Below are positions 1,696 to 41,908 of a DNA stretch of 64,000 nt, in pieces. How positions within the stretch are numbered: the stretch's first letter is position 1; each line of letters starts with the position of its first letter. The notes under the pieces are model-generated. The model was not told where the DNA came from. It searched no databases and saw nothing but the letters and a program-made list of their open reading frames with translations. The stretch is taken from NCBI GenBank assembly GCA_963796275.1, contig CAWCKY010000007.1:608001-672000 (forward strand), written 5' to 3'. A program made the position numbers and the translations under genes. Origin of the DNA: an uncultured Acidobacteriota bacterium. GTDB taxonomy: Bacteria > Acidobacteriota > Blastocatellia > RBC074.

Positions 1696-1873
1696 TTCGC
1701 CGCGTAGCGGCGGTTGATTGTAGCCGTGGGTTTTAACCCACGGAAGCTTGAATGATATTCCCGCGTCGCGTTAGCGACGCCTGAATTCAACCGTCGCTGA
1801 CGCGACGTGAAAAAATCTACCGCCACCGTGGGTTAAAACCCACGGCTACAATCAACCGCCGCTACGCGGCGAA
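1696..1873. repeat. REP doublet (REPIN/BIME-like): perfect 48-bp inverted repeats containing GTAG-type REP hairpins
   Basis: 1696-1743 is the exact reverse complement of 1826-1873; each arm has GTAG followed by the hairpin CCGTGGGTTTTAACCCACGG; internal CGTCGCGTTAGCGACG / CGTCGCTGACGCGACG palindromes. Confidence 0.85.
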
Positions 1874-4915: not shown

Positions 4916-6050
4916 TATCCAGCAGAGAATTTTAAACAACGATGTGAGGGATGAGGAGTCCGAAAGCGCGGACGTAGCGCCGGCGCCGAAAGGCAATAAA
5001 CATCCCATCCTTGAATTGACTCTGGCGCGGATGCGCGAGTTCTGGCGGCAGCCCACGGCGATCTTCTGGGTATTCGGGTTTCCCGTGCTGCTCGCTTTCG
5101 TGCTCGGCATTGCGTTCCGTGATTCTGGGCCCGAGAAGATGCAAGTCGCGGTGGAAAACAGCGCGGCCAACGCGCCCGACATCGCGGCCACTATCGCCCG
5201 CGCGCCGGAGCTTCAACCCATCGTCCTGTCGCCTGCCGAAGCAACCAACGCGCTGCGCACGGGCCAGGTCGCTCTGGTGGTTCGGTGGGGCGAACTCGAA
5301 GGCCGTGGATCTCAGACGGGCTTCGACTACCGGTTCGATCCGACGCGCCCCGAAAGCCGAGTAGCCCGGCTGGCCGTCGATGACGTGCTCCAGCGGGCCG
5401 CCGGCCGCGTGGATGCTACAGTTGCGCGCGATCAAGTTTTCAATGAACCGGGAGCTCGATACATCGATTTTCTGATACCCGGTTTGGTCGGATTGAACTT
5501 GATGAGCAGCGGTTTGTGGGGGTTGGGGTTCGCCATCGTGCAGGCGCGCACGCAGAGATTGCTCAAGAGATTGGCCGCCACGCCGATGCGGCGCTGGCAT
5601 TATCTCTTATCTTTTGTTCTCTCGCGTTTGATCTTCCTGGTGCTGGAAGTCGCGGCGATTTTCCTGTTCGCATATTTCGTTTTCGATGTGAGAGTGCATG
5701 GCTCCTTGCTTAACGTAACTCTCGTCGCATTGACCGGCTCGTTGGCTTTCTCCGGGATAGGACTGCTCGTGGGCGCGCGCACGAAGACGATTGAAGGCGC
5801 GTCGGGCTTGATGAACCTCGTGATGTTGCCGATGTGGCTGTTGTCGGGCAGTTTCTTTTCCTCTGCGAAATTTCCCGAAGTTCTGCAGCCGTTCATCAAA
5901 GCATTGCCATTGACTGCGCTCAACGACGCATTGCGCGCGGTCATGAACGACGGAGCCGGACTCGCTGCAGTTGGCGTCAACCTCGGCATCCTATTGTTGT
6001 GGGGCGTAGTGAGTTTCATCATCGCCTTGCGTATTTTTCGCTGGCAATAA
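4908..6050 (+). CDS. ABC-2 type exporter permease
   Basis: N-terminal TM, extracytoplasmic loop, YIDFLIPG motif and several C-terminal TMs; overlaps the ATPase stop. Confidence 0.9.
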   Translation: MDDIQQRILNNDVRDEESESADVAPAPKGNKHPILELTLARMREFWRQPTAIFWVFGFPVLLAFVLGIAFRDSGPEKMQVAVENSAANAPDIAATIARAPELQPIVLSPAEATNALRTGQVALVVRWGELEGRGSQTGFDYRFDPTRPESRVARLAVDDVLQRAAGRVDATVARDQVFNEPGARYIDFLIPGLVGLNLMSSGLWGLGFAIVQARTQRLLKRLAATPMRRWHYLLSFVLSRLIFLVLEVAAIFLFAYFVFDVRVHGSLLNVTLVALTGSLAFSGIGLLVGARTKTIEGASGLMNLVMLPMWLLSGSFFSSAKFPEVLQPFIKALPLTALNDALRAVMNDGAGLAAVGVNLGILLLWGVVSFIIALRIFRWQ

Positions 6051-6330
6051 CTCCTTTCATAAAAAATACGTAGATTTACCTAGCAAAATTACGCATTTTT
6101 CCTGATACACAAGTCAAAACATCTTGCGTATTATCCACTCATCCTAAGAAGAAAAAAATTCGTGTGAGTGAATAGTAGGCCTGGGATGCTATTCATAAAG
6201 GCTCGTGCCAAGTTGAAAAGGCAGGGCTGCGTGCAGTCCTGCCTACTTTATGAGCGTGTGAATAGCGTGTGAATAGAAGGCAGCTTGGGGAAGGAGAGAG
6301 TTACAAGATTGCGGAATACCGCAATCGGAA

Positions 6331-6511
6331 ATTAGCCGGTGATTCAATTGCATGACAGTAGTTTTGTTGGGGAACTCGTCAGAAAAGTACTTTGGGCCAG
6401 GGAGGCCAAAGCCATTTGGGATTTAGAGGAGAAAATGGTTTTGGTGGTCCAGGTGCATGCCGGTAATGTAAAGGAGGAGCATTACCGGTAGCAGTTGATT
6501 CATCGGCTAAT
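6331..6511 (+). ncRNA. Candidate structured RNA, copy 1 (four-way junction with GGA-rich loops)
   Basis: Closing stem ATTAGCCGGTGATTCAATTGC / GCAGTTGATTCATCGGCTAAT with G-U pairs on +; inner stems TGAC/GTCA, CCAAAGCCATTT/AAATGGTTTTGG and TGCCGGTAATG/CATTACCGGTA; same architecture as 6613-6792. Confidence 0.7.
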
Positions 6512-6574
6512 ACGAAATTCAGAGGTTCAGTACCTTCGTTTTATGCCGCTTGTGCGATGACCTGAGACAAGGAC

Positions 6575-6607
6575 AGCTGCCGGGAGGGCAAAGTCCTCCC
6601 GGCAGTT
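6575..6607 (+). other. Strong GC hairpin between the two structured RNA copies
   Basis: AGCTGCCGGGAGGGC-AAA-GTCCTCCCGGCAGTT, with G-U pairs on the + strand; no long U-tract. Confidence 0.6.
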
Positions 6608-6612
6608 AAAAG

Positions 6613-6792
6613 ATTAGTCAGTGATTCAACTACCTGATGGTGCTTTTTAGGAAGTCCACCATCATTTAAGCGCGATTGACCAGGGAGGCCAGGCTATTGG
6701 GATTCGAGGGAAAGCGCCTGGTGGTTTGAGCGCTTTGCTGTTAATGAATGGAGGAGCATTTTCAGCGACGGGTAGTTGAATCACCGACTAAT
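6613..6792 (+). ncRNA. Candidate structured RNA, copy 2
   Basis: Closing stem ATTAGTCAGTGATTCAACTACC / GGTAGTTGAATCACCGACTAAT; inner stems TGATGGTG/CACCATCA, AAGCGC/GCGCTT, CCAGGC/GCCTGG and GCTG..AATG/CATT..CAGC; loop motifs match copy 1. Confidence 0.7.
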
Positions 6793-6806
6793 GTATCTTT
6801 GATACT

Positions 6807-7473
6807 ATGGTCTTGAGGGCAATCATTGCAGTGTATCTGATCCTAACCGTGTTCGAGGTATTTACCTCAGCTCAGGATAAACGGATCGAAATCTCAGCCA
6901 CGGGTGGTTTCACATTCAGCAATTCAATTCCAGCCGATGAAATCCTGTTTGGAGATGGCAGCCGAATAATCGACGAAGTCGGACCCAAGAGCGGTTATTC
7001 GTGGGGATTTCAGGGAGATTATTCCATCACCAACCGAATAGCGGCGGGCTTCCTCTGGAACCGGCAGCAGAGCAGACTCAGGTTCGGATTCATTTTCTAT
7101 GACAGTATCGATTTCACCGATATGACGATCGACAACTATCACGGAGTTGTCACCTACCACTTCGCTGACAGGGATGCGAATTTTCGCCCTTTCGTCTTCG
7201 GCGGCTTTGGCGCAACCCGGTACGCTCCGAGCACCATTGGGACTATCGAATTTGCCGACGAGTTAGAATACTCAACTACCTGGGGCGGCGGTCTCAAGTT
7301 TTATCCGGCGTCAAAAGTCGGTTTCAAGCTAGGCGTACGTTGGACTCCGACTCATATCAGGATCTGACACATCCGGGATCTGGTGCAACCCACGCTTCGG
7401 CTGCTGGCTCATCAACCCGTCAGTATACTCGAATCAGGTAGAACTCGGCGCAGGCATACTCTTTCGTTTTTAA
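6807..7473 (+). CDS. Outer-membrane beta-barrel protein (OmpW/OmpA-like), with a +1 frameshift near 7360
   Basis: Signal peptide and amphipathic strands; after one extra base the frame continues SDTSGIWCNPRFGCWLINPSVYSNQVELGAGILFRF* with the C-terminal Phe beta-signal. Confidence 0.75.
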
Positions 7474-7741
7474 TTTCCCCTTCCGTTCCGCTCTTCAATT
7501 TTTTCAGCAAAATTTGGTAAACTGGCCTCTCCAGAGACACGAAGTAATTACACGTAAATAGGAGAATCTTGGAAGTCCAGCTCGGGTTTGGCCTTTGCGA
7601 ATCAAATCCGGCGTAGGGGCAGACCTGTTTATTACTCGTTTGTCTGCCCGATGCGTTTTTTGTGAAGCTGCGGCAGGCGAACATGTCTGCCCACGCTGGG
7701 GTTTCAAAGACCATCACCGGGCTATCCCGCAACGAGAGGCT

Positions 7742-12268
<4,527 letters not shown>

Positions 12269-41372: not shown

Positions 41373-41436
41373 CTCTCTATAACTGCTCAGCTACATCGCA
41401 GTGTGAGCGGTATTTTGATTTAGCCGCGGGTTTTAA

Positions 41437-41738
41437 AAGCTTGTCCCAAACTTTTCGGTTTTGCGCCGGAGGCGCAGCTGGATATTAGCCGGTGGTGTAG
41501 CGAAGCGAAACCACCGGACACCCGTCGTTATTGCCTTTGCGCCCCGGTAGGGGCGCCGGACCAGGCACAATGAAAAGAAGATTTCGCACTTCAGAACCCC
41601 ATCCAGCACCCCTGCCGGGGTGCGATGTGAGGACTCACTGCTACCGGTGGTTCCGCTGCGCTTCACCACCGGCTAATATCCACCGCCCTTACCAGGGCGA
41701 AAAGCGGTGATCGCGAATCGCAAAAGTTTGACAAGGGT
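41437..41738. mobile_element. MITE-like element with imperfect terminal inverted repeats and internal REP-like inverted repeats
   Basis: CTTGTCCCAAACTTTT / AAAAGTTTGACAAG ends flanked by TTAA on both sides; inner IR TGGATATTAGCCGGTGGTG...ACCACCGG (about 41479-41517) / CCGGTGGT...CACCACCGGCTAATATCCA (about 41644-41682). Confidence 0.65.
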
Positions 41739-41908
41739 TTAAAAGATAGGCGAACTCTTCCGGAAAGACGGAGATTCCCGTCTGTCGGGCGCAGGCGAAA
41801 AGTGACGCATCAAAGGCGCATCAGCGTCCGGCTAAATTCAGTCGCTGCCCACTACCATAAATAACGGGTTGAGCAGGAACAACTCCTTAACATCTTTTGG
41901 AGATAAAA

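Follow-up and report, generated by a model that had tools for sequence, protein, structure and literature searches.

A tandem pair of structured RNA elements in an Acidobacteriota genome: candidate domesticated derivatives of a REP/REPIN-like repeat

The window, that is, the whole 64,000-nt stretch of DNA analysed, carries two similar elements in tandem (copy 1 and copy 2; Table 1), which belong to a family that we call type A. The source genome, G000, comprises 9.46 Mb and is 94.7% complete; C1, C3, C4, C6 and C7 are its contigs. A first-pass annotation had delimited both elements and given them one shared architecture, a long closing stem (P1) around three hairpins. The MFE folds of the two copies agree with this description, P1 measuring 21 bp in copy 1 and 22-23 bp in copy 2. 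Copy 1 folded at -82.1 kcal/mol against -45.5 ± 3.9 for shuffled sequences (n=200; reached by none), and copy 2 at -74.7 against -49.4 ± 3.9. Each copy also formed a separate module within a 666-nt context fold (6141-6806), and this stretch was highly structured as a whole (z -12.8). The copies were 80% identical by column, matched exactly over CCAGGGAGGCCA and had the loop motifs TTGGGATT and GGAGGAGCATT in common. GGA-containing motifs of the GGAGG/GGGAG type were present in the P3 bulge, P3 loop and P4 loop of both copies, with 3-4 per module.

Table 1. Features of the tandem pair and its surroundings, with related repeat and transposase loci. Positions are those of the window unless a contig is named.
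Feature	Position	Strand	Basis or remark
Sigma-70-like promoter match, 9/12	6106..6134	+	Consensus match only
Long upstream hairpin module	6186..6268	+	Context fold; partly conserved in relatives' RNA contigs
Small hairpin, 8-bp stem, 4-nt loop	6307..6326	+	4 nt upstream of copy 1; forms in context fold
Type A copy 1	6331..6511	+	Fold z -9.3; covariance models R1 177 bits, R2 170 bits
Copy 1 P1	6331-6351 paired with 6491-6511	+	
Copy 1 P2	6353-6381	+	
Copy 1 P3	6387-6456	+	AGGGAG bulge, GGGAUUUAGAGGAG loop
Copy 1 P4	6458-6490	+	AAGGAGGAG loop
GC-rich hairpin between copies	6575..6607	+	15-bp stem in context fold; 5 nt before copy 2; without U tract
Type A copy 2	6613..6792	+	Fold z -6.6; R1 151 bits
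Copy 2 P1	6613-6635 paired with 6770-6792	+	
Copy 2 P2, P3, P4	6636-6663, 6669-6734, 6735-6768	+	
Downstream gene, 186-aa signal-peptide protein	6807..7367	+	ORF; weak outer-membrane beta-barrel match
Type B inverted dimer of REP-like hairpins	41404..41757 (module 41484-41677)	.	Same 11-nt termini; small GC hairpins flank
Y1 transposase gene, 148 aa	G000 C1:1056703-1057149		PF01797 81 bits; NF033573 64.6 bits against cut-off of 55

No known family covers either element, as had been supposed: Rfam gave no match over 6331-6792 at gathering score, and at E up to 10 the sole contact was FinP (14.6 bits, 6564-6615), which reaches the first 3 nt of copy 2. An Rfam alignment of mir-8186 to the hairpin between the copies was spurious (22.9 bits; the gathering score is 80). 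The earlier description of the elements as ORF-free was nearly right: it holds for copy 2, which has no + strand ORF of at least 15 aa, but copy 1 contains a 50-aa GTG ORF. The P4 loops differ by a 1-nt indel, so that the copies have different reading frames, and a small protein was ruled out on these grounds.

Copy 2 ends 14 nt before the downstream ATG, and there is no SD-like sequence in the gap, in keeping with the earlier remark that this ATG lacks an obvious RBS. The product of the downstream gene scored 25.3 bits against PF13568, under the cut-off of 27. Distances from element to next start over the type A loci were 14, 57-98, about 320 and about 630 nt; the genes downstream differ, with a common theme that is only loosely envelope or membrane. 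A terminator scan of 5900-7000 found no intrinsic terminator. A hairpin with the stem sequence of the one that precedes copy 1 also lies directly before the element in the metagenome contig L068.

Covariation was assessed in a MAFFT alignment of nine family members, with the structure taken from these sequences' own MFE folds. Standard pairs occupied 85.8% of 514 pair cells, compared to 28.7-45.9% with partners slid. Two-sided changes were seen in 25 of 60 pairs (13.9 ± 2.5 after shuffling; reached by 0/500 shuffles), which bears out, for a structure drawn from the same sequences, the first impression of diverged stems that keep pairing. The + sense folded better than the reverse complement in all nine members, and G-U cells outnumbered A-C cells both overall (54 to 20) and in the five best-aligned members (34 to 3), as expected of the + strand RNA proposed earlier. 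We regard the structure and the + strand of the type A RNA as established. Y1 transposases work on single-stranded DNA hairpins, so part of the strand asymmetry and of the pairing could be DNA-level history, and quasi-palindrome correction could be a selection-free source of some "compensatory" changes.

The family has conserved purine-rich loops, as first described. Invariance is limited to particular loop motifs, and unpaired columns on average (0.779) were not better conserved than stems (0.795). Interior loop motifs were kept in sequence among paralogues and orthologues; some were lost in the copies on C6 and in G001, a genome recorded as "same genus". The strands of the four-way junction varied between copies, conservation being located in the apical loops and P1.

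Searches by blastn and covariance models found five full copies of type A in G000 (two on C7 and one each on C3, C4 and C6) and a degraded, partial copy on C1. At all five G000 loci the element was sense to co-directional flanking ORFs. G001 carries one diverged copy, which scored 46 bits with R1 and 122 bits with R2, a model trained on that copy. The metagenome collection was covered by one exact-pattern scan for P1: all three soil contigs that it returned matched type A at 149-172 bits. Among 87 genomes of the bacterial family, the core model R3 matched in G000 only. The core pattern had no true match in 185,579 species genomes; two matches, in an alphaproteobacterial and a Bacteroidetes MAG, were attributed to chance, and neither matches R1. 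Comparison of copy 1 with 100 relatives by blastn gave nothing real, the one outside match being 26 nt in G071. Matches to R1 in G091 (four) and G067 (one) were counted as false positives: the alignments viewed, three in G091 and the one in G067, were made up of a 9-nt unit in tandem, frequently where contigs end, and the fourth in G091 was of the same length and score class. G105 gave a further candidate at 18.4 bits with R1. When a parent element was sought by means of the 17-nt terminus of type A, known copies and chance-level matches alone were returned: the terminus was counted 15 + 18 times against 7 + 7 in the control, ten of the 33 belong to known copies, and the remaining loci gave no model match even with filters off. 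The type A family is very narrow in range. Literature searches on structured RNA and MITEs in Acidobacteria and on Correia elements and RNase III turned up no account of the type A element; the type B unit (below) may be among the acidobacterial TIR sequences of PMC3733652. Type A is a small, previously undescribed family.

Type A has exactly the same 11-nt termini as an abundant palindromic repeat, here called type B. By blastn with the copy in the window, type B occupies 27 loci in G000, and up to about 94 elements were found in one relative. The exact 12-mer terminus was counted (forward/reverse) 7/10 times in G000, 27/28 in G029, 10/8 in G020 and 96/92 in G030, with control counts of 0-3 (1 + 1 in G030), and its enrichment extended to several genera and three other families of the class. 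Its matches form convergent pairs 130-210 nt apart, with interiors unrelated to type A. The Y1 gene on C1 is bordered by inverted tagged type B hairpins and small GC hairpins; another Y1 gene, at C6:308723, is broken and likewise flanked. Type B thus has the features that mark REP/REPIN-RAYT systems, a flanked Y1 gene and dispersed, mostly intergenic multi-copy units (inverted dimers).

Type A differs from a standard REP/REPIN member. Its termini have no local palindrome, the outer 13 nt per side alone match the relatives' unit, and the intact tagged hairpin of REP/REPIN units is absent; what it retains are terminal REP half-hairpins, 5' ATTAGCCGGTGAT and 3' ATCACCGGCTAAT. Because no intact hairpin is left at its termini, type A is classed as a derivative. 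Inspection by eye of the flanks of eight type A copies found no common direct repeat or target-site duplication. Among the few longer composites examined that include the module, from G000 and from relatives, some have flanking direct repeats of 5-8 bp. A weak convergent terminus-like pair at 8629-8778 lies within a coding region and was set aside as chance. As judged from sequence, the type A termini originate in type B repeats. The shared 11-nt termini and the Y1-flanking copies suggest that type A is best read as a domesticated, low-copy REP/REPIN-like derivative.

A syntenic locus, in which an OmpA-like gene is followed by the element and a Ysc84 gene, was compared in four organisms (G000 C3, L066, L067 and L068). 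Element identity was 0.76-0.97, compared to 0.43-0.61 in the downstream intergenic region and 0.39-0.50 in the upstream 40 nt. Within the conserved domain of Ysc84, third codon positions were 0.41-0.53 identical and amino-acid identity was 0.88-0.95. The excess of element identity over both flanks and third positions indicates, at the level of sequence comparison, that type A is under strong purifying selection at this orthologous locus. Dispersed MITE-like copies had been named at the outset as evidence against an RNA role. That description fits the termini, which belong to a dispersed, Y1-linked repeat superfamily, but not type A itself: it is low-copy, shows no target-site duplication in the flanks inspected and evolves under purifying selection at an orthologous locus, and the RNA role is therefore not refuted.

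Type A elements were present in contigs from four soil metatranscriptome runs, all of one study; these assembled contigs give no strand, ends or true abundance. Contigs over copy 1 (6306-6484/6485) had depths of 71.7, 66.9 and 127.1, with 4-8 differences in 167-179 nt, compared to a depth of 2 and 14-17 differences in about 150 nt for flanking coding contigs; some coding contigs of relatives may be missing, since their likeness is close to the 88% cut-off. Depth was 10-44 over copy 2 (6625-6759) and 1218 in a 160-nt contig from a divergent relative. RNA contigs joined copy 1 to the upstream leader (6154-6249, depth 66.9, and 6066-6177, depth 37.7, each in the same contig as copy 1) and the C3-like copy to the downstream gene; one contig of 609 nt starts within the C3-like copy and extends about 470 nt further. 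Stretches without RNA contig cover (e.g. 6776-6950) were not counted as evidence.

We consider it probable, with some reserve, that type A arose by domestication from the REP/REPIN-like type B repeats and is now a co-transcribed structured RNA module acting at the RNA level. Type B repeats are presumably moved in the bacterial family by an IS200/IS605-type Y1 (HUH) transposase. The surviving outer halves of the terminal REP hairpins would then have come to pair with each other, giving a P1 of 20-23 bp, and the 140-nt interior would have become three hairpins with sequence-conserved, purine-rich loops. The element would be transcribed in sense, from intergenic or untranslated segments of operons that run in the same direction and encode envelope, secreted and membrane proteins, and would fold as a closed module. 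Its P1 duplex could act as an RNase III entry site, an exonuclease barrier or both, uncoupling the fates of the flanking cistrons and allowing a stable RNA of ~180 nt (or leader plus element) to accumulate. The GGAGG/GGGAG loops, complementary to the organism's own CCUCC anti-SD, may offer 30S subunits a standby or landing platform, or be bound by a non-CsrA protein; the standby role would fit the SD-less ATG after copy 2. RNase III processing, stability control and a loop partner are the parts of this scheme that we infer.

Repeats of the REP, REPIN and MITE types are usually seen as genomic clutter with incidental RNA effects. Here one repeat lineage has lost its transposase-substrate hairpins and is down to a handful of copies, yet is near-unchanged at an orthologous locus with saturated synonymous sites and is well represented in soil metatranscriptomes. 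Type A would offer a clear-cut, testable instance of domestication, from selfish repeat to structured RNA module, and a concrete candidate for a role of SD-like loops on a stable RNA without CsrA. To our knowledge, the host phylum is a poorly studied, hard-to-culture soil group with almost no known regulatory RNAs. Should its role be confined to stability or processing, type A would be a new example of a known theme and involve no new mechanism.

The pair was first proposed as a candidate CsrB/Rsm-like or ribosome-decoy system, and the CsrB/Rsm reading was not supported. Like CsrB, RsmY and RsmZ, type A shows several GGA motifs in hairpin loops of a non-coding RNA; unlike them, it has SD-like motifs, just 3-4 in each module, and forms a closed four-way junction with a long closing stem, with neither CsrA nor an Rfam match. 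A CsrA (PF02599) search of the whole genome gave no match among 42 scored candidates, the control being positive in three of 14 named genomes (E. coli, B. subtilis and T. maritima). A CsrA sponge was rejected because no csrA was found in a genome of this completeness. Trans action could also proceed without CsrA, through ~180-nt modules freed from a precursor that titrate 30S by anti-SD pairing, Hfq or a GGA/GGAG-binding protein. The three or four GGAG/GGGA motifs exposed on each module, the CCUCC anti-SD at the 3' end of the G000 16S, and element contigs much deeper than neighbouring coding contigs, that of depth 1218 included, are consistent with such action. RNase III could plausibly cut in the long P1 stems, and rnc is present in G000. 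A-R-N repeats are the kind bound by the Hfq distal face; the AGGAGGAG loop fits such a repeat, and hfq is also present. We nevertheless hold this alternative to be improbable: besides the missing csrA, no discrete ~180-nt ends were seen in contigs that run on into leader or downstream gene, copy number is low with copies embedded in operons, and the C6 and G001 copies carry degraded motifs. There is likewise a slim chance that a REP/REPIN repeat was captured by the host as an abundant trans-acting RNA, its loops parking or titrating 30S or binding a GGAG-binding protein or Hfq, with the pair processed at P1. A trans-acting type A RNA would, if real, correspond in function to the CsrB-type sponges, and do so in a soil bacterium without CsrA.

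Type A might instead be a decaying or still-selfish repeat of REPIN/MITE type without host function, its hairpins a palindromic legacy and its RNA a passive, nuclease-resistant co-transcript. Termini identical to those of a dispersed, Y1-linked repeat with copies in both window and genome, the very narrow taxonomic range, the degraded C1 copy and a tandem or clustered arrangement, given as typical of REP-type repeats in part of PMC3733652, all point this way. A neutral copy, however, should decay like its flanks and third positions, and the element did not in four organisms. Interior loop motifs are conserved in sequence in paralogues and orthologues, halving of the terminal REP hairpins has removed the usual transposase substrate, the eight copies read are without direct repeats, and the 17-nt terminus has no copies beyond known elements, chance-level matches aside. 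We judge the selfish reading rather unlikely. We regard as highly improbable a role of the pair as a cis-regulatory leader of the beta-barrel gene at 6807 that senses a ligand or signal, in the manner of a tandem riboswitch or thermometer. The pair's position before the SD-less ATG is right, the whole stretch is highly structured, and tandem arrangement is known for some riboswitches. However, type A lacks the conserved junction nucleotides, consistent downstream gene class and expression platform of a riboswitch: junction strands vary while apical loops and P1 are conserved, the next start lies 14 to 630 nt away before differing genes, neither terminator scan nor context fold revealed alternative terminator/anti-terminator pairing, and the element originates as a repeat.

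The features presupposed by CREE- or ERIC-like action, a P1 duplex of at least 20 bp and a genomic RNase III gene, are present for type A; we know of no link between ERIC and a Y1 transposase. The domesticated-derivative reading has its closest relatives in REPtrons and TIRtrons, in which REP/REPIN repeats accompany RAYT or TIRYT tyrosine (Y1, HUH) transposases, a distinct group of them in Acidobacteria, according to the sections of Di Nocera et al. 2013 that treat them (PMC3733652). As in G000, the Y1 gene there lies between inverted copies of a short tagged hairpin, and the hairpins are dispersed, mostly as intergenic inverted dimers that fold into larger structures, many of them transcribed. 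Here the tag is usually TTAG, with GTAG on some repeat copies. Measured against the systems in those sections, type A stands apart in being low-copy, with half of each terminal hairpin and a 140-nt interior of three hairpins with conserved loops, and in being conserved, at an orthologous locus, much more strongly than expected under neutrality.

Neisseria CREE/NEMIS, as portrayed in portions of PMC2649163 and PMC10969869, are ~100-160 nt, bounded by inverted repeats and co-transcribed with neighbour genes; in the RNA, the paired repeats bind RNase III, and the resulting cleavage or protection changes neighbour expression. This duplex is the working model that, by analogy, we propose for P1. 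CREE sequences are unrelated to type A, and the same portions describe them as high-copy, with a TA duplication and an IHF site. Enterobacterial ERIC/IRU are imperfect palindromes of similar size in transcribed intergenic regions that alter the stability of the carrier transcript; in the Yersinia work covered in part of PMC10969869 the effect differs in acting through an RNase E site, and there is no sequence relation to type A. Coxiella Cbsr3/13/16, small RNAs derived from the MITEs QMITE1/2 and of unknown role in that account (PMC10969869), resemble type A as stable small RNA species from a non-autonomous repeat; conservation at an orthologous locus was seen for type A and is not given for QMITE in that account.

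The scanned region around the pair contained four promoter-like sites, compared to 1.9 ± 1.4 in shuffles. Of the RNA contigs, one begins at 6154 and another already at 6066.

Copies 1 and 2, the two tandem elements, matched the coordinates and sequence recorded in the first-pass annotation, and MFE folds of both predicted the architecture it had described, a closing stem (P1) of 21-23 bp enclosing three hairpins (P2, P3 and P4). Copy 1 had an MFE of -82.1 kcal/mol, against -45.5 ± 3.9 in 200 dinucleotide shuffles (z -9.3), and copy 2 one of -74.7, against -49.4 ± 3.9 (z -6.6). When a 666-nt context was folded (6141-6806; z -12.8), the copies closed separately with no cross-pairing. Column identity between them was 80%; the bulge motif CCAGGGAGGCCA was identical in both, and the loop motifs noted earlier were likewise common to both. 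The pair had been called ORF-free, which held for copy 2 (no + strand ORF of at least 15 aa) but not for copy 1, which contains a 50-aa GTG ORF. A coding role was rejected because copy 2 lacks such an ORF and frames differ among family members, owing to a 1-nt indel in the P4 loop. As reported, the downstream ATG begins 14 nt past the end of copy 2 with nothing SD-like between. Rfam 15 at gathering thresholds returned nothing on either copy across the whole window, its only matches being two to Acido-Lenti-1 elsewhere; at E ≤10 over 6050-6850 there were four weak matches, none inside the body of a copy. No Rfam family thus covers either copy.

Features of the window and of one locus on contig C1 of the same genome (type A, the family holding copies 1 and 2; type B, a dispersed palindromic repeat)
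Feature	Position	Strand	Description
Acido-Lenti-1 (RF01687)	1698-1743	-	37.6 bits (gathering score 37)
Acido-Lenti-1 (RF01687)	1826-1871	+	37.6 bits (gathering score 37); inverted relative to the other match, ~80 nt apart
Upstream stretch	6154-6275		parts kept in relatives' RNA contigs, joined there to copy 1
Motif GTGAGTGAATAG	near 6165		related to GTGTGAATAG
Long hairpin	~6186-6268		upstream of copy 1, within the upstream stretch
Short motif GTGTGAATAG	around 6255-6275		present twice
Copy 1	6331-6511	+	type A
Copy 2	6613-6792	+	type A
Beta-barrel-like gene	6807 (ATG)		
1557-aa ORF	7595-12268		directly 3' of the beta-barrel gene
Complete type B repeat	41404-41757		inverted dimer of tagged hairpins, small GC hairpins beside; 11-nt termini same as those of copies 1 and 2
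REPtron/TIRtron-like unit (L126)	C1:1056400-1057800		more half-units on one side

Type A has further members in the genome to which the window belongs (G000; 9.46 Mb, seven contigs C1-C7, 94.7% complete). Copies were found by blastn on C3 (77% identity), C4 (72%, opposite strand) and C1 (3' partial), and a covariance model built from four copies (R1) detected a diverged copy on C6 (39 bits). Among 150 relatives, R1 gave one credible match (G001, 46 bits). An exact two-ended pattern scan of a metagenome collection returned three contigs, all matching R1 at 149-172 bits. A core-motif pattern had two matches in 185,579 species genomes, neither of which matched R1, and a model of the P3 and P4 core only (R3) matched solely the six places in G000 among all 87 genomes of the bacterial family. 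Type A therefore occupies a very narrow taxonomic range. Two 'same genus' genomes were actually distant (Ysc84 homologues 59-63% identical), and the protein encoded from 6807 was not found in them. The R1 matches whose alignments were viewed in relatives G091 and G067 were false, being a 9-nt tandem repeat; R1 had one further match in G091 and one in G105 (18 bits). The repeat (GGGAGTCTT) forms long runs in G091 (L028, L031-L033), often at contig ends, and in G067 (L029).

All nine members, each folded alone, showed the same architecture, and all nine folded better in the + sense than as the reverse complement. Pairs were counted on a MAFFT alignment (A4) unfitted to any structure. Standard pairs filled 85.8% of 514 cells versus 29-46% with partners slid 1-3 columns, a comparison biased in favour of the tested structure, which came from these sequences' own folds. 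Both sides changed in 25 of 60 pairs (13.9 ± 2.5 in shuffles, with 25 reached by 0 of 500), in agreement with the covarying stems proposed earlier. G-U cells outnumbered A-C cells (54 against 20 overall; 34 against 3 when only the five best-aligned members were counted), which points to a single-stranded + sense molecule; with the folding preference, this upheld the earlier reading of a + strand RNA. Mean column identity was highest in P1 (0.945). It was 0.779 in unpaired columns and 0.795 in the other stems, and so the conservation previously ascribed to unpaired parts applies to particular loop motifs, not to loops in general.

On C3, the type A copy has an OmpA-like gene on one side and a gene for a Ysc84/SYLF-type secreted protein on the other. 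Two soil metagenome contigs (L066, L068) carry OmpA-like gene, element and Ysc84 gene in the same order, and in a third (L067) the element precedes the same Ysc84 gene. Across these four organisms, identity was 0.76-0.97 in the element, 0.43-0.61 in the intergenic DNA 3' of it and 0.39-0.50 in the 40 nt 5' of it; in 100 conserved Ysc84 codons it was 0.41-0.53 at third positions and 0.88-0.95 for amino acids. Compensatory exchanges were seen in P3 and P4 among these orthologues. Since a neutral relic would resemble its flanks and the element is far more identical, sequence comparison indicates strong purifying selection on the element at this locus.

A model of nine members (R2) also matched five other same-family genomes of 40 searched, from three other genera. 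In the five alignments viewed, only the termini were common with type A, the interiors being unrelated GC-rich hairpins, and these matches scored about equally on both strands. Exact copies of the 12-mer terminus (forward and reverse; control in brackets) numbered 7 and 10 in G000 (1/3) and, in relatives, 27 and 28 in G029 (3/0), 10 and 8 in G020 (2/3) and 96 and 92 in G030 (1/1), as convergent pairs 130-210 nt apart. In 400 further genomes of the class, a tally that takes in the unpublished G357, G296 and G004, on which no result depends, the 12-mer was over-represented in several of this family's genera and in certain genomes from three further families; counts elsewhere were at background.

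Type B, found at 27 loci in G000 by blastn, one of them in the window, has as its terminus a small tagged hairpin with short GC hairpins beside it. The unit often lies within a longer repeat having its own outer inverted repeats and edged, in the few cases read, by 5-8 bp direct repeats. In G029, G030 and G020 (L108-L113, L100-L107), the same inner hairpin-dimer module lies inside longer repeats whose outer inverted repeats and bordering direct repeats (5 to ~8 bp) vary, as though several carriers shared a single module. An IS200/IS605-type Y1/HUH transposase gene on C1 (148 aa; PF01797, 81 bits; NF033573, 64.6 bits against a cut-off of 55) has inverted type B hairpins on both sides, and C6 holds another Y1 gene, a broken one, that is likewise hairpin-flanked. 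Passages of Di Nocera et al. 2013 (PMC3733652) describe a 'REPtron/TIRtron' arrangement and point out that some such transposases form a separate acidobacterial group; the C1 gene between its hairpins has the same arrangement, and some copies here bear a GTAG tag.

Of each terminal hairpin, type A has kept no more than the outer 13 nt, and the two halves pair as P1. Its 17-nt terminus did not occur elsewhere in G000 beyond chance. Dispersed copies with target-site duplications, as in a MITE, had been named as evidence against an RNA role; the termini are indeed common to dispersed type B, but no direct repeats flanked the eight type A copies read. The best explanation is that type A branched off from a REP/REPIN-like repeat, lost its mobility and was domesticated, and is now a co-transcribed structured RNA module. 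Y1 transposases use ssDNA hairpins, so part of the pairing and of the strand bias may go back to events at the DNA level; such a history leaves unexplained why a resident copy should be conserved between species.

RNA data were contigs assembled from four soil metatranscriptome runs of one study, from near-identical relatives of the locus. They covered both copies, in line with the presence in RNA anticipated earlier. Copy 1 contigs (6306-6484/6485) had depths of 71.7, 66.9 and 127.1 with 4-8 differences, copy 2 contigs had depths of 10-44, and flanking coding regions had only contigs of depth 2 with 14-17 differences in ~150 nt. The element is thus present at contig depth far above its neighbours' and is better conserved than they are, on contigs from which neither strand nor ends nor dependable levels can be read, from libraries that may contain DNA and with coding contigs close to the 88% likeness cut-off possibly dropped. 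Single contigs link copy 1 to upstream sequence, one to 6154-6249 and another to 6066-6177. Loose contig ends are similar to the copies on C3 and C4, and a 609-nt contig begins within a C3-like copy and extends ~470 nt downstream. In run X15, ~60 nt of a 160-nt contig of depth 1218 match copy 2 (6697-6757, P3 loop to P4 loop), and the other 100 nt diverge yet resemble the P4/P1 3' side, which suggests a more abundant, more divergent soil family member uncaptured by the other searches.

The structural observation of the first-pass annotation was confirmed as a whole, and its CsrB-like sponge interpretation is unsupported, as csrA was not found in the 94.7% complete G000. A trans-acting sponge working without CsrA is distinctly unlikely, the RNA contigs showing no discrete ends. 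That type A is a purely selfish or decaying repeat, its termini being those of type B, is an unlikely reading, hard to square with the conserved interior motifs and with element identity of 0.76-0.97 across four organisms against far lower flanks. A ligand-sensing leader upstream of the beta-barrel gene is highly improbable, given junctions that are not conserved and an inconsistent gene context. Repeat-derived structured RNA elements are a known kind of thing; what is new is the type A family itself, undescribed in Rfam and the literature searched, and its degree of conservation after losing mobility signals. The type B unit may be listed in the supplements of PMC3733652. We consider the interest of type A moderate, not high.

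As a domesticated repeat, type A would be transcribed together with its neighbours as a structured RNA module that sets the relative fate of flanking cistrons and persists as stable RNA. REP elements protect mRNA. By analogy with these, and with Correia and ERIC elements as treated in PMC2649163 and PMC10969869, the long P1 duplex would probably act as an RNase III site or block exonucleases. Genes for RNase III and Hfq are present in G000. The GGAGG/GGGAG loops, which are complementary to the 3' end of G000's own 16S, may serve as a 30S standby or landing site, which would suit the SD-less start beyond copy 2. At all five G000 loci, type A lies in sense orientation between co-directional ORFs. 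The next downstream products are a beta-barrel-like outer-membrane protein, the Ysc84 secreted protein, a DUF308 membrane protein, a signal-peptide amidohydrolase and an SBF transporter; what they have in common is no more than a loose link to the envelope. The 1557-aa ORF that follows the beta-barrel gene in the window encodes HEAT repeats and a stretch weakly resembling the C-terminal part of squalene-hopene cyclase.
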